From the IMG/VR virus record IMGVR_UViG_2648501318_000014: a stretch of 8,702 nucleotides of DNA. The stretch is one strand, 5' to 3'. Under the pieces are notes generated by a model. The model did not search any database. It was not told the DNA's origin and was given only the letters and a program-made list of their open reading frames with translations. Each line of letters opens with the position of its first letter. Position 1 is the stretch's first letter. The stretch is from a virus (taxonomy: Duplodnaviria > Heunggongvirae > Uroviricota > Caudoviricetes). This document shows, one piece after another, positions 1 to 8,663 of this stretch. A program made the translations under genes and the position numbers.

Positions 1-150
1 CTCAACGGCATCGTCAAAATTATCAAAGCGCAGAGCTTCTGCGTCTTCTTCGTCAAAGAAGTCATCGTCGTGAAGCTTCACGACATAGCGGGGAAGTTTG
101 CTTCTTTGAGGGGCAGGTTTTCGTTTACGGGGTTTAGCTGAACGGGCCAT
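1..150 (-). CDS. Hypothetical protein, N-terminal 50 codons only (gene runs off the window's left edge); divergent from the tail operon
   Basis: ATG at 150-148 on the minus strand with an SD-like AGGT about 6 nt upstream; frame stays open to position 1. Translation MARSAKPRKRKPAPQRSKLPRYVVKLHDDDFFDEEDAEALRFDNFDDAVE has a basic then acidic composition typical of a real protein. The complementary + frame is also open to 138, so strand choice is uncertain. Confidence 0.4.
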   Translation of the reverse strand, partial: MARSAKPRKRKPAPQRSKLPRYVVKLHDDDFFDEEDAEALRFDNFDDAVE

Positions 151-168
151 ATAACTACCTGAAAGACA

Positions 169-1041
169 ATGACATTATCTTTTTTTATAACGGTAATTCC
201 AGACCATGACAAGCCGCAGCCGCCAGGCTGCCTACTCGGTGTTAAACCGCGCATTCTCGGCGTGCCGGGGCACGATAATAAAGCCGTTGCTACTGAGTTG
301 CTGGGCGTGGCGCAAAGCCTGCGTGGGTTTGCTTACCTGTCAGCGTATGGCTGCAAGACGGTGCAGGAGGCGATCACTTACCGTGAAAACTTCAGTCAGC
401 GTGAAGGGATGCTGATCTGGCCTGACTTTACTGGCTGGGACACGGTGCTGAATGCCGACGCAACGGCATATGCCACCGCCCGTGCGCTTGGTCTGCGTGC
501 CAAAATTGATGAGCAGACAGGGTGGCACAAAAGCCTGTCCAACGTGGGCGTGAACGGTGTCACCGGAATTTCTGCTGATGTGTTCTGGGATCTGCAGGAC
601 CCGGCAACTGATGCGGGACTGCTTAACCAGAACGATGTTACCACACTTATCCGCAAAGACGGCTTTCGCTTCTGGGGTTCCCGCTGCCTGAGTGATGACC
701 CACTCTTTGCCTTCGAAAACTACACCCGCACGGCGCAGGTGCTGATGGACACGATGGCAGAAGCGCCAATGTGGGCGGTCGACAAACCGCTGAATCCGTC
801 GCTGGCCCGCGACATTATCGAAGGTATCCGCGCCAAAATGCGCAGCCTGATCAGTCAGGGCTATCTCATTGGTGGCGATTGCTGGCTGGATGAGTCGGTG
901 AACGACAAAGACACTCTGAAAGCTGGAAAACTCACCATCGACTACGACTACACACCAGTGCCGCCACTTGAAAACCTGATGCTGCGTCAGCGCATCACCG
1001 ATCAGTACCTGGTGAATTTCTCCAGCCAGGTCAGCGCGTAA
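169..1041 (+). CDS. FI: Phage contractile tail sheath protein (P2 FI family), apparently 5'-truncated: only the C-terminal ~268 residues are FI-like
   Basis: From [11 protein letters not shown] (about nt 232) to the stop, the translation follows my recollection of P2 FI closely ([70 protein letters not shown]). The in-frame stop TGA at 160-162 and a non-FI leader ([23 protein letters not shown]) show the first ~128 residues of a 396-aa FI are not encoded here. Confidence 0.8.
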
Positions 1042-1050
1042 GGGGACAAC

Positions 1051-1566
1051 ATGGCTTTACCACGCAAATTAAAACACCTGAACCTGTTTAACGACGGGAA
1101 CAACTGGCAGGGGATCGTTGAGTCGCTGACGCTGCCGAAATTCACCCGCAAATATGAGAAGTATCGCGGTGGCGGAATGCCGGGTGCAGTGGATGTGGAT
1201 CTGGGGCTGGATGATAGTGCGCTGGACACAGAATTTTCCATTGGTGGTACTGAACTGCTGCTGTTTAAGCAGATGGGCAAAGCCACGGTGGATGGTATCC
1301 AGTTGCGCTTTACCGGCTCTATTCAGCGTGACGATACCGGGGAAGTGCAGGCCGTGGAGCTTGTGGTGCGTGGACGTCACAAAGAAGTGGATTCCGGCGA
1401 GTGGAAGACGGGCGAAAGCAACACCACCAAAGTGACCAGTACCAACAGCTACGCGAAGCTGACTATCAATGGTGAGGTGCTCTATGAAGTGGACCTTATC
1501 AACATGGTGGAAATTGTGGACGGCGTGGACCTGATGGAAGCGCACCGCAACGCCCTCGGCCTCTGA
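1051..1566 (+). CDS. FII: Phage tail tube protein (P2 FII family)
   Basis: 171-aa ORF starting 10 nt after the FI stop; N-terminus MALPRKLKHLNLFNDGNNWQGIVESLTLPK and length match P2 FII as I recall it; order FI-FII-E-T-U-D is conserved. Confidence 0.9.
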   Translation: MALPRKLKHLNLFNDGNNWQGIVESLTLPKFTRKYEKYRGGGMPGAVDVDLGLDDSALDTEFSIGGTELLLFKQMGKATVDGIQLRFTGSIQRDDTGEVQAVELVVRGRHKEVDSGEWKTGESNTTKVTSTNSYAKLTINGEVLYEVDLINMVEIVDGVDLMEAHRNALGL

Positions 1567-1577
1567 TGTATCTGAAC

Positions 1578-1595
1578 GGCGCGGGATTCCGCGCC
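1578..1595 (+). other. GC-rich stem-loop in the FII-E intergenic region (7-bp stem ggcgcgg/ccgcgcc, 4-nt loop), no U-tract; possible attenuator or RNA-stability element
   Basis: Perfect inverted repeat read directly in the sequence; not followed by a T-run, so not a classic intrinsic terminator. Confidence 0.25.
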
Positions 1596-1620
1596 AGAAC
1601 CCAATTTACAGGACAGAAAA

Positions 1621-1923
1621 ATGAGCGATAAGCAGACTGAAAAGACCATTCAACTGGATACCCCTATCAAGCGCGGTAAAACGGAAATCACCGAAATTGT
1701 GCTGCGTAAACCGCAGTCCGGTGCACTGCGCGGTACACGCCTGCAGGCTATTATGGATATGGATGTGAACGCGATGATGACCGTGATCCCCCGCATCTCC
1801 AGCCCGGCACTGACTGCACAGGAAATTGCAGAGATGGACCCGGCAGATCTCACCGCTATGTCGGTTGAGGTTGTCACTTTTTTGTTGAAGAAGTCGGTAC
1901 TTGCCGGTTTACCGACAGCCTGA
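1621..1923 (+). CDS. E: Tail assembly chaperone E (P2 gpE family)
   Basis: 100-aa ORF immediately upstream of the tape measure gene; contains the canonical slippery heptamer near its 3' end; position and size fit gpE. Confidence 0.85.
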   Translation: MSDKQTEKTIQLDTPIKRGKTEITEIVLRKPQSGALRGTRLQAIMDMDVNAMMTVIPRISSPALTAQEIAEMDPADLTAMSVEVVTFLLKKSVLAGLPTA

Positions 1924-2057
1924 CGGTTGACGATCTGGTGGCTGATATCGCCACCATCTTTCACTGGCCGCCATCCGTTACTGACGTTATGCCGCTGACC
2001 GAAGTGCTGGAATGGCGGTATAAAGCGATTCAGAGAAGCGGGGCCAACGATGAGTGA
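1621..2057 (+). CDS. E+E': Tail assembly chaperone E+E', made by programmed -1 ribosomal frameshift at 1878-1884 (join 1621..1884, 1884..2057; about 145 aa)
   Basis: T TTT TTG sits in the X XXY YYZ register of the E frame; the -1 frame is open from 1884 to TGA at 2055-2057 and overlaps the T start, as in the P2 E/E' and lambda G/GT paradigm. Predicted extension: VEEVGTCRFTDSLTVDDLVADIATIFHWPPSVTDVMPLTEVLEWRYKAIQRSGANDE. Confidence 0.7.
1878..1884 (+). promoter_or_regulatory. -1 programmed frameshift slippery heptamer TTTTTTG
   Basis: Heptamer is in the correct register relative to E codons act|ttt|ttg. Confidence 0.7.
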
Positions 2058-5000
2058 TAATAACCTGCGCCTGCAGGTCATTCTTAATGCGGTTGACAAA
2101 CTCACCCGCCCATTCCGTGCTGCACAGGCCAGTTCGAAAGAGCTGGCTGGCGCAATTCAGAATACCCGAAACAGCCTCAAAGAACTGAATAAGCAGGCTG
2201 GCAGAATTGATGAATTTCGCAAGACGCGCTCGCAACTAGCCATAACAGCCAACAACCTGAACGCAGCCCGCGAAGAGGCGGCAAAACTCGCCACACAATT
2301 TGCTGCCACTAACAGGCCAACCGCCGCGCAGGCAAAGTTATTCAGTCAGGCCAAAACACGAGTACAGGAACTTCAGCAGACCTATAACGGCTTGTTGGGG
2401 GCGGTCCAGAGACAACGTCAGGCACTTAAAGAATCAGGGATTGATACCAGACAACTCAGTAGTGCCCAGCGAGAACTTAAGAAAAATGCTGAAGAAACAA
2501 GGCAGGCACTGGAGGGCCAGCAAAAAGCACTTAAACGTCTGGGTGAACAACAGGCACGGATGAACGCTGCCAGAGAACAATACTCAAGACGGCTTGAAGT
2601 GCGCGATCGCATCGCAGGAGCCGGAGCCACTACCACGGCTGCAGGGCTGGCAATGGGGGCGCCAGTGATGGCGGCAGTAAAAAGCTATACCAGCATGGAA
2701 GATGCCATGAAAGGTGTGGCAAAGCAGGTCAATGGTCTGCGTGACGATAATGGCAACCGCACTGCACGTTTTTATGAAATGCAGGATGCCATCAAGGCTG
2801 CCAGCGAACAGTTGCCGATGGAAAACGGTGCGGTGGACTTCGCTGCACTGGTTGAAGGTGGTGCGCGCATGAACGTCGCAAACCCTGACGACAGCTGGGA
2901 AGACCAGAAACGTGACCTGCTGGCCTTCGCCAGTACGGCAGCAAAGGCGGCAACAGCCTTTGAGCTGCCAGCGGATGAACTGTCAGAAAGTCTGGGGAAA
3001 ATCGCCCAGCTCTACAAAATACCAACCCGCAATATTGAACAGCTCGGCGATGCGCTGAACTATCTGGATGATAACGCCATGTCGAAAGGGGCGGACATCA
3101 TTGATGTGATGCAACGTCTGGGCGGTGTGGCTGACCGTCTGGATTATCGTAAAGCGGCGGTGCTGGGTTCCACCTTCCTGACACTGGGCGCTGCGCCGGA
3201 GGTTGCAGCCAGTGCAGCAAACGCGATGGTGCGTGAATTGTCCATTGCCACCATGCAGAGCAAGAGTTTCTTTGAAGGGATGAATCTGCTGAAACTCAAT
3301 CCTGAAGTGATTGAAAAGCAGATGACGAAGGATGCGATGGGAACTATCCAGCGTGTGCTGGAGAAGGTGAACGCACTGCCGCAGGACAAGCGTCTGTCTG
3401 CCATGACCATGTTGTTTGGTAAAGAGTTTGGCGATGACGCGGCGAAACTGGCAAACAACCTGCCGGAACTGCAGCGTCAGTTAAAACTGACAGCGGGCAA
3501 TGATGCGCTCGGCTCCATGCAGAAAGAATCCGACATCAATAAGGACTCACTTTCTGCTCAGTGGTTACTGGTCAAAACCGGAGCGCAGAACACCTTCAGC
3601 AGCCTGGGCGAAACGCTGCGCCAGCCGCTGATGGATATTCTGTACACGGTGAAAAGCATCACGGGGGCGTTGCGCCGCTGGGTGGAAGCTAACCCGGAAC
3701 TGACAGGCACACTGATGAAAGTAGCGGCTGTTGTGGCTGCGGTTACCGTAGGCCTCGGCACCTTAGTGGTGGCGCTGGCTGCAGTGCTGGGGCCGCTGGC
3801 AGTCATCCGTCTGGGATTCTCTGTGCTGGGTATCAAAACGTTACCTTCCGTTACGGCAGCAGTAACACGAACCAGCAGCGCGTTGTCCTGGTTAGCTGGC
3901 GCTCCACTGGCACTGCTGCGACGCGGGCTTGCTTCATCGGGCAACGCAGCGGGTTTACTTACTGCGCCGTTGTCGTCTTTGCGCCGCACGGCATCACTGA
4001 CGGGGAATGTCCTGAAAACTGTAGTAGGTGTGCCGGTTGCACTGTTGCGGTCTGGATTATCCGGTTTACGTGCTGTTGCTGTGATGTTTATGAATCCACT
4101 GGCAGCACTACGCGGTGGACTGGCTGCCGCAGGCGCGGTGCTGCGAGTACTGGCATCCGGTCCGCTGGCGATGCTGCGCGTTGCCCTGTATGCCATATCG
4201 GGTCTGTTAGGTGCTCTGCTCAGTCCGATAGGTCTTGTGGTTACTGCACTGGCGGGCGTGGCGCTGGTTGTCTGGAAATACTGGCAACCCATCACCGCAT
4301 TTCTCGCTGGTGTGGTGGAAGGATTCAAAGCGGCGGCAGGTCCCATCAGTGCAGCATTCGAACCACTTAAGCCTGTGTTTCAGTGGATTGGCGACAAAGT
4401 GCAGGCGTTGTGGGGCTGGTTTACTGATCTGCTGACGCCCGTTAAGTCGACCTCTGCCGAACTGCAGAGCGCAGCGGCAATGGGGCGACGATTCGGGGAG
4501 GCACTGGCGGAAGGGCTGAATATGGTCATGCATCCGCTGGACTCCCTGAAATCCGGCGTTTCCTGGTTGCTGGAGAAACTCGGCATTGTCAGTAAAGAGG
4601 CTGCAAAGGCGAAATTGCCGGAAAGAGTGACGCGTCAGCAACCTGCGACGGTGAATGCAGACGGTAAAGTGATGATGCCATCGGGTGGTTTTCCGTCATG
4701 GGGATATGGCTTTGCGGGGATGTATGACAGCGGCGGCTATATCCCGCGCGGGCAGTTTGGCATCGTCGGTGAAAACGGGCCGGAAATTGTTAACGGCCCG
4801 GCAAATGTGACCAGCCGGAGAAATACAGCTGCACTGGCTGCCGTTGTTGCCGGAATGATGGGCGTTGCTGCCGCGCCTGCAGAGCTTCCACCGTTGCATC
4901 CTTTGGCACTTCCCGCGAAAGGCGGCGAAGCGATGGTGAGTCGTGCAGCCACTGTGCCGCCCGTTCACCGGATTGAGGCACCGACGCAGATCATCATTCA

Positions 5001-5127
5001 GACGCAGCCAGGACAAAGTGCGCAGGATATTGCGCGGGAGGTGGCACGCCAGCTTGATGAACGTGAACGCAGGCTGAAGGCAAAAGCCAGGAGTAACTAC
5101 AGCGATCAGGGGGGATACGACGCATGA
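2050..5127 (+). CDS. T: Tail tape measure protein (P2 gpT family), 1025 aa
   Basis: Long ORF after E/E'; coiled-coil-like Q/A/K/R-rich N-terminal half, long Ala/Leu/Gly-rich hydrophobic central region, Gly-rich C-terminal part (GENGPEIVNGP); position matches tape measure. Confidence 0.9.
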   Translation: MSDNNLRLQVILNAVDKLTRPFRAAQASSKELAGAIQNTRNSLKELNKQAGRIDEFRKTRSQLAITANNLNAAREEAAKLATQFAATNRPTAAQAKLFSQAKTRVQELQQTYNGLLGAVQRQRQALKESGIDTRQLSSAQRELKKNAEETRQALEGQQKALKRLGEQQARMNAAREQYSRRLEVRDRIAGAGATTTAAGLAMGAPVMAAVKSYTSMEDAMKGVAKQVNGLRDDNGNRTARFYEMQDAIKAASEQLPMENGAVDFAALVEGGARMNVANPDDSWEDQKRDLLAFASTAAKAATAFELPADELSESLGKIAQLYKIPTRNIEQLGDALNYLDDNAMSKGADIIDVMQRLGGVADRLDYRKAAVLGSTFLTLGAAPEVAASAANAMVRELSIATMQSKSFFEGMNLLKLNPEVIEKQMTKDAMGTIQRVLEKVNALPQDKRLSAMTMLFGKEFGDDAAKLANNLPELQRQLKLTAGNDALGSMQKESDINKDSLSAQWLLVKTGAQNTFSSLGETLRQPLMDILYTVKSITGALRRWVEANPELTGTLMKVAAVVAAVTVGLGTLVVALAAVLGPLAVIRLGFSVLGIKTLPSVTAAVTRTSSALSWLAGAPLALLRRGLASSGNAAGLLTAPLSSLRRTASLTGNVLKTVVGVPVALLRSGLSGLRAVAVMFMNPLAALRGGLAAAGAVLRVLASGPLAMLRVALYAISGLLGALLSPIGLVVTALAGVALVVWKYWQPITAFLAGVVEGFKAAAGPISAAFEPLKPVFQWIGDKVQALWGWFTDLLTPVKSTSAELQSAAAMGRRFGEALAEGLNMVMHPLDSLKSGVSWLLEKLGIVSKEAAKAKLPERVTRQQPATVNADGKVMMPSGGFPSWGYGFAGMYDSGGYIPRGQFGIVGENGPEIVNGPANVTSRRNTAALAAVVAGMMGVAAAPAELPPLHPLALPAKGGEAMVSRAATVPPVHRIEAPTQIIIQTQPGQSAQDIAREVARQLDERERRLKAKARSNYSDQGGYDA
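3901..4221 (+). repeat. Five degenerate in-frame tandem repeats (period 63-66 nt) inside the tape measure gene, consensus about P-L-A-x-L-R-x-G-L
   Basis: Repeats APLALLRRGL / APLSSLRRTASL / VPVALLRSGL / NPLAALRGGL / GPLAMLRVAL; the proline codons fall at 3904, 3967, 4033, 4096 and 4162. Confidence 0.5.
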
Positions 5128-5609
5128 TGATGGTGCTGGGATTGTACGTGTTTATGCTGCGCACCGTTCCGTATCAGGAACTGCAGTATCAACGCAGCTG
5201 GCGACATGCGGCAAACAGCCGGGTAAACCGTCGTCCGTCCACGCAGTTTCTGGGACCGGACAACGACATGCTGACGCTTTCTGGTGTTCTTATGCCGGAG
5301 ATAACGGGCGGCAGGCTGTCGTTGCTGGCTCTGGAGCAGATGGCAGAACAGGGAAAAGCATGGCCCCTGATTGAAGGCAGCGGCACGATTTACGGCATGT
5401 ATGTGATTGAGGGACTGAATCTGACTAAAACGGAGTTTTTCCGCGACGGTATGCCGCGCCGGATTGAGTTCACCCTGTCGCTCAAACGGGTGGATGAATC
5501 CCTGTCCGATATGTTCGGTGATCTCAGTACGCAGCTGAATAATCTGCAGGACACGGCAACATCTGCCTTAAGTGATATCAGTAAAACGGTGGGAGGGCTG
5601 CTGTCGTGA
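5124..5609 (+). CDS. U: Tail protein U (P2 gpU family)
   Basis: 161-aa ORF whose ATG overlaps the T stop (ATGA at 5124-5127); size and position match gpU. Confidence 0.85.
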   Translation: MMMVLGLYVFMLRTVPYQELQYQRSWRHAANSRVNRRPSTQFLGPDNDMLTLSGVLMPEITGGRLSLLALEQMAEQGKAWPLIEGSGTIYGMYVIEGLNLTKTEFFRDGMPRRIEFTLSLKRVDESLSDMFGDLSTQLNNLQDTATSALSDISKTVGGLLS

Positions 5610-6706
5610 ATTTCAGCTCTGAACTGCTTAACAAAGGCAACAAAACTCCCGCATTCAGCATCAGTATTGAGGGCAGGGATATCAACACTGTGCTGGATAA
5701 CCGCCTGATGAGTTTGACTCTGACGGACAATCGGGGCTTTGAAGCGGACCAGCTTGATCTGGAGCTGGACGACGCCGACGGAAAAATCGTGCTGCCGCGC
5801 CGTGGTGCGGTCATTACGCTGGCGCTGGGCTGGAAGGGGCAGCCGCTTTTCCCTAAAGGGGCATTCACGGTGGACGAGATTGAACACACTGGCGCACCGG
5901 ACCGCCTGACTATCCGGGCGCGAAGTGCTGATTTTCGTGAAACGCTGAATACCCGCCGTGAAAAGTCGTGGCACAAGACCACCGTTGGGGAAGTGGTGAA
6001 GGAAATAGCCTCGCGGCATAAGCTGAAGATGGCACTGGGTAAAGACCTGTCGGATAAGCCCGTGGAACATATAGACCAGACCAATGAGAGTGACGGCAGT
6101 TTTCTGATGCGGCTGGCGCGCCAGTACGGTGCTATTGCGTCGGTGAAAAATGGCAATCTGTTATTCATCCGGCAGGGACAGGGTAAAAGCGCCAGCGGTA
6201 AACCACTGCCGGTGATCACTATCACACGCAAGGACGGCGACAGTCACCGCTTTACCCTGGCAGATCGCGGAGCCTACACGGGCGTAATTGCCAGCTGGTT
6301 GCATACCCGCGAACCCGCGAAGAAAGAAAGCACTACGGTGAAGCGTAAGCGCAGAACGAAGAATCAGAAGAAAGAGCCGGAAGCGAAGCAGGGCGATTAC
6401 CTGGTGGGTACGGATGAAAACGTGCTGGTACTCAATCGCACCTATGCCAATCGGAGTAACGCCGAACGGGCAGCGAAAATGCAGTGGGAACGCCTGCAAC
6501 GCGGCGTTGCGTCATTCTCGCTACAACTGGCGGAAGGGCGGGCAGATCTCTACACGGAAATGCCAGTGAAAGTCAGTGGCTTTAAACAGCCGATAGATGA
6601 TGCGGAATGGACCATTACGACTCTGACACATACCGTCAGCCCGGATAATGGTTTTACGACCAGTCTTGAGCTTGAAGTGAAGGTTGATGATCTCGAAATG
6701 GAATGA
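5606..6706 (+). CDS. D: Tail protein D (P2 gpD, late control D family)
   Basis: 366-aa ORF with GTG start overlapping the U stop (GTGA at 5606-5609); position immediately upstream of ogr as in P2. Confidence 0.85.
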   Translation: MNFSSELLNKGNKTPAFSISIEGRDINTVLDNRLMSLTLTDNRGFEADQLDLELDDADGKIVLPRRGAVITLALGWKGQPLFPKGAFTVDEIEHTGAPDRLTIRARSADFRETLNTRREKSWHKTTVGEVVKEIASRHKLKMALGKDLSDKPVEHIDQTNESDGSFLMRLARQYGAIASVKNGNLLFIRQGQGKSASGKPLPVITITRKDGDSHRFTLADRGAYTGVIASWLHTREPAKKESTTVKRKRRTKNQKKEPEAKQGDYLVGTDENVLVLNRTYANRSNAERAAKMQWERLQRGVASFSLQLAEGRADLYTEMPVKVSGFKQPIDDAEWTITTLTHTVSPDNGFTTSLELEVKVDDLEME

Positions 6707-6743
6707 TTCTTTACAATGGAGAACTTTTAAGTTTGAAAAATGG

Positions 6744-6763
6744 AATAATGCGATATCATTATT
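6744..6763. promoter_or_regulatory. Dyad-symmetric element aataatgcgatatcattatt upstream of ogr; possible operator or promoter-associated site
   Basis: 7-nt arms aataatg / cattatt around a GATATC core, about 35-50 nt upstream of the ogr start; function not established. Confidence 0.2.
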
Positions 6764-6796
6764 GTGAATTTAGCAAAAATGGGGAGAACTCGAAAA

Positions 6797-7015
6797 ATGA
6801 TGATTTGCCCACTGTGTGGAAGTGCCGCCCATACTCGCAGCAGTTTTCAGGTATCTTCATTGACCAAAGAGCGTTACAACCAGTGCCAGAACATTAACTG
6901 CAGCCATACTTTTGTTACCCATGAAACTTTTGTTCGTTCGATTGCAACGCCAAAAGAGTCAAATCCGGTTCAGCCGCATCCTCATAAATTTAAACAGGTG
7001 GGTTTGCCGATTTAA
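6797..7015 (+). CDS. ogr: Ogr/Delta-type C4 zinc-finger late transcription activator, 72 aa
   Basis: MMICPLCGSAAHTRSS...KERYNQCQNINCSHTF matches the CxxC...CxxxxC Ogr zinc finger; SD GGGGAG about 10 nt upstream of the ATG at 6797; 72 aa as in P2 Ogr. The ORF-track start at 6764 adds a non-homologous extension and is less likely. Confidence 0.85.
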   Translation: MMICPLCGSAAHTRSSFQVSSLTKERYNQCQNINCSHTFVTHETFVRSIATPKESNPVQPHPHKFKQVGLPI

Positions 7016-7078
7016 ATGGCGACATAACTACATGATTTAAAACTATACTTTTCTATAAGTTGAGGTTAAATTAACAAT

Positions 7079-7256
7079 GCCTGACGTTAGCGGGGATTTA
7101 TCCCCACTCCGTAGATATGTAGTTTGTCGCTTTGCGACTGCGGACCGATTACCTGATTGCCATGTAATCGGACGCCGACTTGTTAAGCTTTCTGGGCTAA
7201 CTGGTTGTTATTTTTTATTTAGTTAGGGCCATGCGCTTGCGCTAAGAGACGTCAGG
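7079..7256 (+). ncRNA. Candidate structured noncoding RNA upstream of the RT operon (retron msr/msd-like), bounded by an imperfect inverted repeat
   Basis: Left arm gcctgacgttagcg (7079-7092) pairs with right arm cgctaa-gaga-cgtcagg (7240-7256): 13 bp with a 4-nt bulge. TTAGCG followed by a G-run sits just inside the left arm. Internal hairpins at 7092-7105, 7126-7138 and 7145-7171. No ORF. An AT-rich promoter-like stretch lies upstream and an SD follows the right arm. Confidence 0.3.
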
Positions 7257-7276
7257 TATCTATGGAGGAACAAGTT

Positions 7277-7450
7277 ATGGATACAAACGAACTTGGCTTA
7301 GTTAAGGCGCGTGTTGAACTGATCACCGCTATGCTCAAATGCGCAACCGCGTTTGTTGGCTTAGTTGGTGCGGTTTACGCCGTTCTTAACATGGCCTTCA
7401 ACTACAGCAATTTAACTCATGACAATAGAAGTTCAAAGGTGGGAAGATAA
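7277..7450 (+). CDS. Small hypothetical membrane protein (57 aa, one predicted TM helix); candidate effector or partner of the RT
   Basis: SD GGAGG at 7264-7268, 8 nt before the ATG at 7277; product MDTNELGLVKARVELITAMLKCATAFVGLVGAVYAVLNMAFNYSNLTHDNRSSKVGR has a ~25-residue hydrophobic core; its 3' end overlaps the RT start by 32 nt. Confidence 0.4.
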   Translation: MDTNELGLVKARVELITAMLKCATAFVGLVGAVYAVLNMAFNYSNLTHDNRSSKVGR

Positions 7451-8192
7451 ATTTGAGATTAAGCCCGGGGTTTGGGTTTATGTCCCAAGCGTTGAGGCAC
7501 GTAAAGTCGGAGGGAAGATACTTCAGGCTGTCAGAAACAAGTGGATTCCGCCACTCTATTTTTACCATCTAAGAACTGGTGGGCATCTTAAAGCTGCCAG
7601 ATTACACTTAAAAAGTGATTTTTTTGCCGTTGTTGATATTAAACAATTTTTTCAGTCAACGAGCCGTAGTCGTATCACCCGTGATCTAAAGAGCTACTTC
7701 ACCTATTCTCAAGCGCGGGAAATCTCAACATTTTCAACTGTAAGAAACTTGTCCCATAGTCCACATAAGCATGTCCTCCCTTTTGGTTTTGTTCAATCTC
7801 CAATACTTGCAACCCTCTGCTTAGATAAAAGTTATTTTGGTAGCTTACTACGCCGATTGAACAAACATCATGATCTCAAGCTAAGTGTGTTTATGGATGA
7901 TGTGATCATCTCGTCAAACGATTTGGCCCAATTACAAGCGGCTTACGACGAAGCACTAGTGGCAATGCGCAAATCTGGTTATCAAGCCAACATGAGTAAA
8001 ACTCAGGCACCATCGTCAAAGATTAGCGTGTTTAATTTAACTTTGAGTAAGGGAGTTATGAAAGTCACATCTCAGAAAATGAGTGACTTCCTGATTGATT
8101 TCTATTCAAGCAATTATGAGCCGCACAGAATAGGGGTCAAAAACTACGTCGAAGCTGTTAATCCAGGGCAAGCGAAACTCTTTAAGTTGTAA
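7419..8192 (+). CDS. Compact reverse transcriptase (257 aa) with retron-type motifs
   Basis: Motif 1/2-like YVPSVEARKVGGKIL; NAxxH-like AARLH; motif A FAVVDIKQFFQS (Asp codon 7635-7637); motif B LPFGFVQSPILATL; motif C VFMDDVII (Asp-Asp codons 7896-7901); KVTS in the position of the retron VTG motif. Frame is closed by TAA at 7413-7415 just upstream, so no longer N-terminus is possible. Confidence 0.85.
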   Translation: MTIEVQRWEDKFEIKPGVWVYVPSVEARKVGGKILQAVRNKWIPPLYFYHLRTGGHLKAARLHLKSDFFAVVDIKQFFQSTSRSRITRDLKSYFTYSQAREISTFSTVRNLSHSPHKHVLPFGFVQSPILATLCLDKSYFGSLLRRLNKHHDLKLSVFMDDVIISSNDLAQLQAAYDEALVAMRKSGYQANMSKTQAPSSKISVFNLTLSKGVMKVTSQKMSDFLIDFYSSNYEPHRIGVKNYVEAVNPGQAKLFKL

Positions 8193-8261
8193 TTGCGATC
8201 GCATGTAGTAGCAACTGGGCTTGACTGAATGCCTGCCGCCATTTTGCCGCCACTACCAAAG

Positions 8262-8289
8262 AAAAAAGGGCTACGCTTTCACGTAACCC
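8262..8289 (-). terminator. Intrinsic terminator of ssrA (minus strand); may also terminate the convergent RT operon
   Basis: On the minus strand: 8-bp stem GGGUUACG/CGUAGCCC (one G-U pair), 6-nt loop, then U6 (plus-strand aaaaaa 8262-8267), starting 12 nt after the ssrA 3' end. On the plus strand the same hairpin is followed by a T-rich stretch. Confidence 0.45.
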
Positions 8290-8300
8290 ATTGATTTATT

Positions 8301-8663
8301 TGGTGGAGCTGGCGGGAGTTGAACCCGCGTCCGAAATTCCTACATCCTCGGTACTACATGCTTAGTCAGTCTTTACATTCGCTTGCCAGCTGCGGACGGA
8401 CACGCCACTAACAAACTAGCCTGATTAAGTTTTAACGCTTCAACCCCAGGCAGGGCTTCCACGCGATCTCTTTTGGGTTTGACCTCTCTTGATCCCCGTC
8501 CTAAGAGCGGAGGCTAGGGAGAGAGGGCTCTAAGCAGGTTATTAAGCTGCTAAAGCGTAGTTTTCGTCGTTTGCGACTATTTTTTGCGGCTTTTTACGAG
8601 GCCAACCGCCCCTCGGCATGCACCTTGGGTTTCGCAAATCCCGTCGAATCCAGAATCAGCCCC
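8301..8663 (-). ncRNA. ssrA: tmRNA (transfer-messenger RNA, SsrA), complete 363-nt gene
   Basis: Reverse complement begins GGGGCTGATTCTGGATTCGACGGG and ends GGTTCAACTCCCGCCAGCTCCACCA; the tag reading frame GCAAACGACGAAAACTACGCTTTAGCAGCTTAA (ANDENYALAA-stop) is at 8542-8574. Matches enterobacterial ssrA as I recall it. Confidence 0.95.

Follow-up and report, generated by a model that had tools for sequence, protein, structure and literature searches.

Why does a P2-like prophage end in an AT-rich block that carries a reverse transcriptase (RT) gene, and to what kind of system does that gene belong? The window analyzed here, the whole stretch of 8,702 nt from IMG/VR virus record IMGVR_UViG_2648501318_000014, represents the right-hand end of an Escherichia coli prophage of P2-like (Peduoviridae) kind and is 100% identical to strain CV839-06. 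Genes run in the order FI (partial), FII, E, T, U, D, ogr, a 57-amino-acid (aa) open reading frame (ORF), a 257-aa RT, and then host ssrA. The segment between ogr and the phage attachment (att) arm encodes a structured RNA, a small protein (SP) and the RT. We interpret this cassette, with a probability of about 0.6, as an unclassified retron variant that lacks a helix-turn-helix (HTH) gene and encodes a translationally silenced small toxin. By analogy with characterized retrons, it is most likely an anti-phage system.

The cassette was delimited by comparison with prophages that have an empty site.

6982–8232, plus strand: accessory segment of 1,251 bp; homology to empty-site prophages L085–L088 stops at 6981 and resumes at 8233.

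These prophages are of the same type, are integrated at ybjL, and share 98% identity with the window as far as 6981. A stretch of 36 bp replaces the 1,251 bp, and the match resumes from 8233 on, at TGCCGCCATTTTGCCGCC. The alignment against P2-like prophages without the insert, which a preliminary description of the locus had proposed as a check, thus placed the two junctions exactly, between 6981 and 6982 and between 8232 and 8233. The left one falls within ogr, whose last 11 codons (from 6982) belong to the exchanged segment. Among 5,426 complete E. coli genomes, 960 have the D-ogr segment and 33 the module; universal presence in related phages is excluded, as about 930 of the 960 lack the module. 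The segment therefore shows the presence/absence polymorphism with defined junctions that identifies a phage moron.

Other occupants of the same slot were found. Phage 500465-1, integrated at the same ssrA site, has an unrelated minus-strand gene of 160 aa in place of the cassette, and in Klebsiella phage 4LV2017 the ogr-att slot is empty. The 160-aa protein matches phrog_2561 (2.9e-77), named 'DNA ligase' by the PHROG library, and related record CP019275 has the same slot gene in frameshifted form. E. coli strain G3 carries an 82.8%-identical copy of the cassette at the ogr-att junction of a ybjL-integrated P2-like prophage. The RT of the G3 copy is frameshifted, with the N-terminus in one frame and the remainder in another; three further genomes match the cassette at the same 82.8% identity. 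A 98.6%-identical prophage end is present in Klebsiella pneumoniae, and identical cargo occurs in Klebsiella prophages. In seven complete E. coli genomes an IS4-like insertion sequence, IS421, lies at about position 7093, inside hairpin H1 and 3 nt past the candidate priming G described below. These copies look like natural knock-outs of the cassette, because the element parts the promoter and a1 from SP and RT. The ogr-att junction serves as an exchange slot in P2-like phages with two distinct host integration sites, and 6982–8232 is almost certainly laterally acquired cargo.

Base composition had led to the proposal that the RT module was added as cargo at the end of the prophage. The comparison of filled and empty sites bears this out; the conclusion holds because of this comparative evidence and not because of composition. 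A compositional discontinuity exists far beyond chance. GC content is 0.551 in 1–6706 and 0.415 in 6707–8232, and it returns to about 0.5 in the att arm and ssrA, with the right edge of the AT-rich block at about 8232–8250. A two-segment fit gains 49.7 in likelihood, and none of 200 block shuffles exceeded 12.7. By maximum likelihood the change falls at 6644 (support interval 6538–6686; z = 7.0), about 370 bp from position 7016, where the preliminary description had placed it; neither 6982 nor 7016 shows a step (z = −0.3 and −0.7). The GC-based argument fails, because the shift begins about 340 bp before the true left junction, takes in ancestral ogr, and has no step at the junction itself. 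Module limits of 7016–8260, drawn from the same argument, are replaced by 6982–8232. Composition is not a marker of insertion here, because the ancestral D-ogr spacer (GC 0.29) and ogr (0.44), both conserved phage sequence, are as AT-rich as the RT gene (0.41).

The hand-counted GC values had been roughly right for the RT region (0.40–0.45 in 300-nt windows) and too high for the tail genes, which had been put at about 60% and have a mean of 0.55, reaching 0.60 only in part of gene T. Codon usage does differ, as had been noted. GC at third codon positions is 0.39 in the RT gene and 0.57–0.66 in the tail genes; per 1,000 codons, CTG is used 3.9 versus 69 times and TTT 50 versus 16 times. The supposed enrichment of AAT is absent (11.6 per 1,000 versus 17.0 in the tail genes). 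The compositional anomaly is thus real but not specific to the RT module. The AT-rich block might instead be a native regulatory phage end that needs no horizontal acquisition. This holds for 6644–6981, where the AT-rich 3′ end of D, spacer and ogr are all conserved in 960 genomes; for 6982–8232 it is refuted by direct presence/absence polymorphism, and as an account of the block it is very unlikely.

Within the cassette, the following elements were identified.

7066–7071, plus strand: conserved −10-like hexamer TAAATT (TAnnnT), separated from a1 by 8 nt; candidate promoter for RNA, SP and RT.
7078–7268, plus strand: structured noncoding RNA, like a retron msr-msd and continuous with the SP mRNA (hybrid RNA); minimum free energy −68.6 kcal/mol, z = −2.83.
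7080–7087, plus strand: a1 arm CCTGACGT; pairs with 7249–7256.
7088–7090, plus strand: UAG directly 3′ of a1; A7089 and G7090 do not vary across 46 diverse loci, and G7090 is the candidate priming guanosine.
7092–7105, plus strand: hairpin H1, GGGG ATTTAT CCCC; other loci have a UAGGC...GCCUA equivalent.
7107–7117, plus strand: anti-Shine-Dalgarno (anti-SD) strand CTCCGTAGATA in the H1-H2 linker; 11 bp with 7257–7267.
7126–7138, plus strand: hairpin H2, GTCGC TTT GCGAC; 98–99.6% paired, with G-C to A-U double changes.
7139–7218, plus strand: variable long hairpin in the place of the retron msd stem; length and sequence differ among loci.
7219–7224, plus strand: TTRGTT motif (TTAGTT here); columns at least 90% conserved.
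7233–7242, plus strand: hairpin H4, GCGC TT GCGC; nearly invariant, family form GCGC NNN GCGC.
7249–7256, plus strand: a2 arm ACGTCAGG; pairs with a1, on the same evidence as a1.
7257–7267, plus strand: Shine-Dalgarno (SD) strand TATCTATGGAG; holds the SP GGAG (7264–7267) and abuts a2 with no spacer.
7277–7450, plus strand: SP, 57 aa (WP_001384722); a hydrophobic/amphipathic helix, then a conserved NMAFNY motif; predicted effector.
7419–8192, plus strand: RT, 257 aa (WP_000151541); Pfam RVT_1 2e-21, catalytic FMDD, start inside the SP ORF.

The comparison covered 79 genome loci (Gamma-, Beta- and Alphaproteobacteria and some other bins) and 53 viral loci. RNA, SP and RT occur together in about 70 of the 79 genome loci and in 46 of 47 viral loci; no conserved neighbor besides SP was found in the 79 loci. 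Most family members lie outside prophages. An enterobacterial subclade (at least 80% RT identity) always adjoins D-ogr in viral contigs. The D-ogr link is limited to this subclade (14 of 53 viral and 2 of 79 genome loci); other RT subclades have unrelated contexts, some beside integrases.

The RNA fold was evaluated by covariation. The a1 and a2 arms are paired in 98.3% of cells across 86 sequences, with double changes in six of seven pairs, and the own-locus duplex has −15.6 kcal/mol versus −9.95 kcal/mol for cross-locus pairings. For the 13-pair structure, 157 compensatory cells were counted in the same 86 sequences against 45 ± 7 in shuffles, and pairing drops to 20–48% once the partners are slid. 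Covariation in a1:a2 and in H2, whose family consensus is GUCAC NNN GUGAU, or GUCRC NNN GYGAY with degenerate positions, is also present on an alignment that was not fitted to the structure. The variable hairpin region includes an inverted repeat, CCGATTAC...GTAATCGG, at 7145–7171, and the hypothetical complementary DNA (cDNA) of the candidate template (7139–7248) would fold with z = −3.08.

A covariance model, R1, was built from 46 loci. Of 47 held-out viral loci, 46 gave a single match each, placed just upstream of the RT and on its strand. The model matched 71 of 86 sources in the first search, these 46 viral loci included, and all 86 sources selected for the later alignment, with no match in the control loci (Burkholderia phage KS5, 500465-1, 4LV2017 and the empty site). 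No Rfam family matches the RNA. Of 72 loci, 57 have TAnnnT upstream of a1, and 21 of these also have a TGn extension; a generic promoter scan made no call near a1 and found no clear plus-strand terminator after the RT. A conserved G, preceded by A, lies just 3′ of a1 in retrons such as Ec86. Judged by its sequence, the RNA has the defining features of a retron msr-msd, being closed by a1/a2, encoded upstream of the RT on the same strand, and provided with a conserved G immediately 3′ of a1. G7090 is a candidate branching or priming residue.

A further helix joins this RNA to SP expression. Its anti-SD and SD strands were judged by per-locus duplex energies with cross-locus controls, because MAFFT and covariance-model alignments shift register by 1–2 columns between loci. 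The own-locus duplex has −13.0 kcal/mol versus −8.8 kcal/mol cross-locus, and none of 30 permutations was as low. Both strands diverge widely in sequence among loci with complementarity kept, and 44 of 45 loci have the SD within the duplex (median 10 bp). Control pairings of a1 with the SD and of the anti-SD with a2 gave no difference between own-locus and cross-locus energies. The order a1, anti-SD, a2, SD gives anti-SD:SD a pseudoknot topology with a1:a2; the two helices would stack on each other, with a2 and SD as one continuous strand, or else form in alternation. The SP ribosome-binding site is thus sequestered in a hybrid RNA, as in type VI retrons, and the pairing data make RNA-mediated silencing of SP likely.

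The SP gene is a regular part of the family. About 72 of the 79 genome loci have an ORF of 40–60 aa that ends at or inside the RT start; in the window, SP overlaps the RT start. The encoded proteins share a basic N-terminus (consensus MKKFNYRLV), the hydrophobic/amphipathic helix, and an [LS]NMAFNY motif, and SP had no match in Pfam, PADLOC, NCBIfam or PHROGs. The SP ORF is linked to the RT and co-occurs with it, as a retron effector gene would, and we infer an effector role for it. It is an even call whether SP is an abortive-infection toxin. Against the Klebsiella michiganensis orthologue, the ratio of nonsynonymous to synonymous substitution rates (dN/dS) of SP is 0.31 with a dS of only 0.35, compared with a dS of 1.15 for the RT. 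The low dS suggests RNA-level constraint on the SP coding sequence (7277–7418). A conserved GCCUAGUU-like motif at SP codons 7–9 may pair with CUAGG just 3′ of H4, with weak statistics. A candidate third helix, CUAAG at 7242–7246 with CUUAG at 7297–7301, has some compensatory changes by eye, a weak difference in duplex energies (−10.6 versus −9.8 kcal/mol) and mis-registered columns.

The RT belongs to a discrete family of short proteins. Nearly all of 72 word-indexed homologues are 250–260 aa long; among 1.84 billion representative proteins, 158 match the RT at E ≤ 1e-30 and 519 at E ≤ 1e-3. The catalytic box is FMDD in the window RT and YMDD or YVDD in relatives. With a dN/dS of 0.09 against the same orthologue, the RT is under purifying selection with its catalytic box intact. 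For all 32 family members tested, the best profile is a retron RT, at generic levels: family E-values are best for RT_VI (1.9e-24), followed by types I-B, IX and II-A (1e-20 to 1e-22), and the window RT scores 63 bits with PADLOC RT_VI and 52–59 bits with other retron types. Its closest solved structures are the retron RTs Ec86, Kva2, Eco8, Ec78 and Ec67, starting from 8.7e-13 for Ec86, whose alignment spans RT positions 10–248. No SD precedes the RT start in the window, and by hand count about 9 of 57 candidate starts in the family have an SD-like motif. Because RT starts lie mostly within SP and without an SD, this arrangement suggests that RT translation is coupled to SP translation. Together, RT and RNA are very probably a pair of the retron type.

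Which retron type is closest was evaluated with type VI, whose members have an SP. In Retron-Vpa2, a hybrid RNA contains msr-msd and a translationally repressed toxic SP, and phage recombination proteins increase multicopy single-stranded DNA (msDNA), which derepresses SP (bioRxiv 10.1101/2025.10.22.683967). In Retron-Sen3, an HTH antitoxin restrains SP and the trigger is RecBCD inhibition (10.64898/2026.04.27.721009). The RTs of retron types IV, V and VI group in a single clade (PMC7736814). Type VI is recognized by a Cro/C1-type HTH (cluster 2_1) beside the RT and an SP of clusters 2075, 2760, 3272 or 3897. KS5 gp44 (RT) and gp45 (HTH) served as the sequence control, and Vpa2, Sen3 and Eco12 were compared by description only.

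Like these systems, the present family has a structured RNA, a small-protein gene and a short RT on one transcript. In both, the small protein has a hydrophobic C-terminal helix, its ribosome-binding site lies hidden within RNA structure, the template domain is closed by inverted repeats, and the system is often phage-borne, KS5 also being P2-like. Unlike type VI, the present family lacks the Cro/C1 HTH gene, its RT is about 20–80 aa shorter, and its SP is shorter (40–60 aa) with an NMAFNY motif of its own and is directly overlapped by the RT start. In Vpa2, a2 comes after the SP gene, whereas here it lies upstream of it. The cassette could nonetheless be an ordinary type VI retron minus its HTH or a decayed remnant, perhaps Retron-Eco12 itself, which comes from E. 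coli. The nominally best profile is RT_VI, and both the order of RNA, SP and RT and the sequestered SP ribosome-binding site fit type VI logic.

The direct comparison with KS5 makes this reading quite unlikely. KS5 gp44 scores 260 bits with RT_VI and 115 with its next-best profile, against 63 bits with RT_VI for the window RT, and its neighbor gp45 scores 117 bits with HTH_VI. The window RT and KS5 RT share 24% identity (BLASTP, E = 8e-7) and retrieve disjoint record sets from the phage collection by tblastn at an E limit of 1e-8. No window protein matches HTH_VI, no ORF lies between SP and RT because the two overlap, and an HTH gene is missing throughout the family (about 130 loci across Proteobacteria), not just in the window. 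The conserved RNA motifs are absent at the KS5 locus, and SP has no evident similarity to the KS5 SP ORF, the only type VI SP compared. RT and SP are under purifying selection, contrary to a remnant. Retron-Eco12 more likely comes from a canonical type VI system, because an E. coli O157 phage record contains relatives of KS5 type. The cassette thus departs from type VI in RT clade and HTH gene and agrees with it in the position of the SP gene between RNA and RT. The KS5 type VI retron (L089:645–2200) sits after portal gene Q and has an upstream 67-aa ORF with a hydrophobic tail. With the present family, P2-like phages carry two different SP-type RT systems at two slots.

Other relatives are more distant. 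Retron-Eco1 (Ec86, type II-A) has the closest solved RT, a1/a2 repeats, and msr hairpins followed by a long template hairpin in an RNA upstream of the RT. Its effector is a separate enzyme, whereas a 57-aa peptide is encoded here between RNA and RT and is apparently controlled at translation by RNA rather than by RT-msDNA binding; the window RT is also shorter than Ec86, by about 50 residues at the N-terminus and about 25 at the C-terminus. Type IV (Retron-Eco6/Ec48; an RT and a protein with two transmembrane helices) likewise combines a retron RT with a small membrane-type effector, but the Ec48 effector is a larger two-helix protein whose gene lies downstream of the RT gene, and the best 25 PADLOC matches of the window RT include no type IV profile.

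A toxin-antitoxin-like prophage stabilization or addiction module would use similar parts: SP would be a type I-like toxin under silencing by its leader RNA, and the RT would serve RNA processing or maintenance instead of phage defense. In type I toxins such as hok and tisB, the ribosome-binding site is occluded by an upstream complementary segment. SP is small and hydrophobic, its ribosome-binding site is paired within the same RNA, and the cassette lies at a prophage end beside the att site. The likeness to hok/sok and tisB/istR is a functional analogy only: no antisense RNA gene is evident here, and the RT and retron-type priming elements (a1/a2 and the invariant UAG) are integral. The RT is always present, with its catalytic box kept under strong purifying selection, most family members are not in prophages, and the characterized retrons tested so far all act in phage defense. 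An addiction module is therefore unlikely.

Another class of retroelement is the most improbable explanation. A diversity-generating retroelement (DGR) acting on tail genes is suggested by the RT adjoining phage tail genes, and P2-like phages do carry other RTs, such as P2-EC30 Orf570; yet the window has no template/variable repeat pairs, its longest direct repeats being 19–31 nt at 70–95% identity. A group II intron fragment is contradicted by Rfam, which reports no intron or other RNA family, and by group_II_RT_mat (23 bits versus a cut-off of 300). For RTs of abortive-infection (Abi) or defense-associated (DRT) type, Drt3a gives 17.6 bits versus a cut-off of 200, and the best DRT profile, UG33, gives 33 bits, well under the retron profiles. 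An Abi/UG RT is also unlikely because 257 aa leaves no room for the extra domains of these proteins. All three readings are rejected on the repeat, Rfam and profile searches.

Several observations weigh against the retron interpretation. The RT falls under every curated retron cut-off (NCBIfam retron_St85_RT 49.5 bits versus a cut-off of 235), and its RT_VI score is far from the 260 bits of the genuine type VI control. The a1:a2 helix crosses the anti-SD:SD helix, and the two may coexist or alternate. As the RT start has no SD and overlaps SP, silencing of SP would also mean little RT; this fits poorly with an RT-dependent system, and RT or SP may have other roles. Direct repeats of the Vpa2 type between the template region and SP coding sequence have no statistical support beyond the enterobacterial subclade (longest common substring 5.53 nt own-locus versus 5.29 nt cross-locus). 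Disrupted natural copies (IS421 in seven genomes, frameshifted RT in the ybjL variant) suggest that selection in E. coli is not uniformly strong. Reverse transcription and its msDNA product, SP toxicity, the trigger and the defense phenotype are inferred.

Under the retron interpretation, the following working is proposed from type VI retrons. The −10-like promoter would drive one transcript from a1 that includes RNA, SP and RT. In the basal fold, the SP ribosome-binding site would be paired with the H1-H2 linker in a pseudoknot with a1:a2, and SP and probably the coupled RT would thereby be kept low. The RT would copy the variable hairpin, the candidate template, into single-stranded DNA, and phage infection would alter the amount or state of cDNA or RNA. 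Release of the ribosome-binding site could follow if RNase H removes the template and the fold changes, if cDNA synthesis extends into 7107–7117, or if accumulated msDNA anneals in trans. SP would then be made and would damage the membrane or arrest growth, and infection would abort. This outcome would protect the lysogen population and hence the prophage.

The surrounding features are ancestral phage or host sequence.

5606–6706, plus strand: tail gene D; Pfam Phage_GPD 1.3e-27, ancestral phage; the GC drop starts in its last ~60 bp.
6707–6796: D-ogr intergenic spacer; GC 0.29, ancestral, outside the insertion and kept in empty-site prophages.
6797–7015, plus strand: ogr late-gene activator (zinc finger), RefSeq coordinates; Pfam Ogr_Delta 6.7e-22, GC 0.44.
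8233–8300: phage att-arm sequence; common to phages without the cassette, contains the terminator serving ssrA.
8301–8663, minus strand: host ssrA (transfer-messenger RNA, tmRNA), the integration site; Rfam tmRNA 295.8 bits, also called by ARAGORN.

The D-ogr spacer is conserved in hundreds of prophages and presumably holds the ogr promoter; a 64-aa ORF overlapping it at 6703–6897 is probably spurious. The 8233–8300 segment has a BLAST match to phage 500465-1, and against ybjL-integrating phages only its start was seen to match. The ssrA intrinsic terminator (8268–8289, minus strand) lies within this segment and is prophage DNA. Rfam matches to tmRNA_permuted arise from the genuine ssrA. At the 3′ end of the RT, two perfect 10-mers in collinear order (8167–8176 and 8201–8210) match ssrA-internal 8378–8387 and 8352–8361 in inverted orientation. 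These are probably due to chance; the first sits in conserved RT C-terminal coding sequence and is lost in the 82.8% variant.

RefSeq annotates the two cassette genes as 'hypothetical protein' and 'reverse transcriptase domain-containing protein', and PADLOC and NCBIfam give generic sub-threshold RT matches. The literature searched has no mention of the cassette accession in this context or of a further retron type, and the family may sit among the unclassified RTs of published data sets. Retrons with small toxic peptides are already known, as is RT cargo in P2-like phages; Orf570 of P2-EC30, 570 aa and cited in PMC3091744, is a precedent in P2-like coliphages. What is new is an SP-RT system that resembles a retron, lacks an HTH and has a conserved RNA switch; no library used here names it.

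An AT-rich moron in a P2-like prophage is routine; its contents are less so. Moron loci on the P2 map are old, tin and Z/fun. The cassette resembles these morons as an AT-rich, variably present accessory set in a conserved P2-like genome; its slot is ogr-att rather than old, tin or Z/fun, and the Orf570 RT is of a different kind. The broadest reading is tentative and falls somewhat short of even odds. By that reading the family would be an unclassified retron lineage of Gamma-, Beta- and Alphaproteobacteria and the smallest complete retron (about 1.15 kb: RNA, 40–60-aa peptide and ~255-aa RT), with no protein regulator. A pseudoknot-type helix between msr and ribosome-binding site would tie reverse transcription to toxin translation, and P2-like phages would have acquired the cassette repeatedly at ogr-att. 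Type VI control of SP, translational or post-translational, was shown only in 2025–2026, and the HTH is central there. An HTH-less family doing the same job would be a minimal test case for the coupling of reverse transcription to toxin release, and a cassette of <1.2 kb could serve as a compact chassis for retron-based DNA production.

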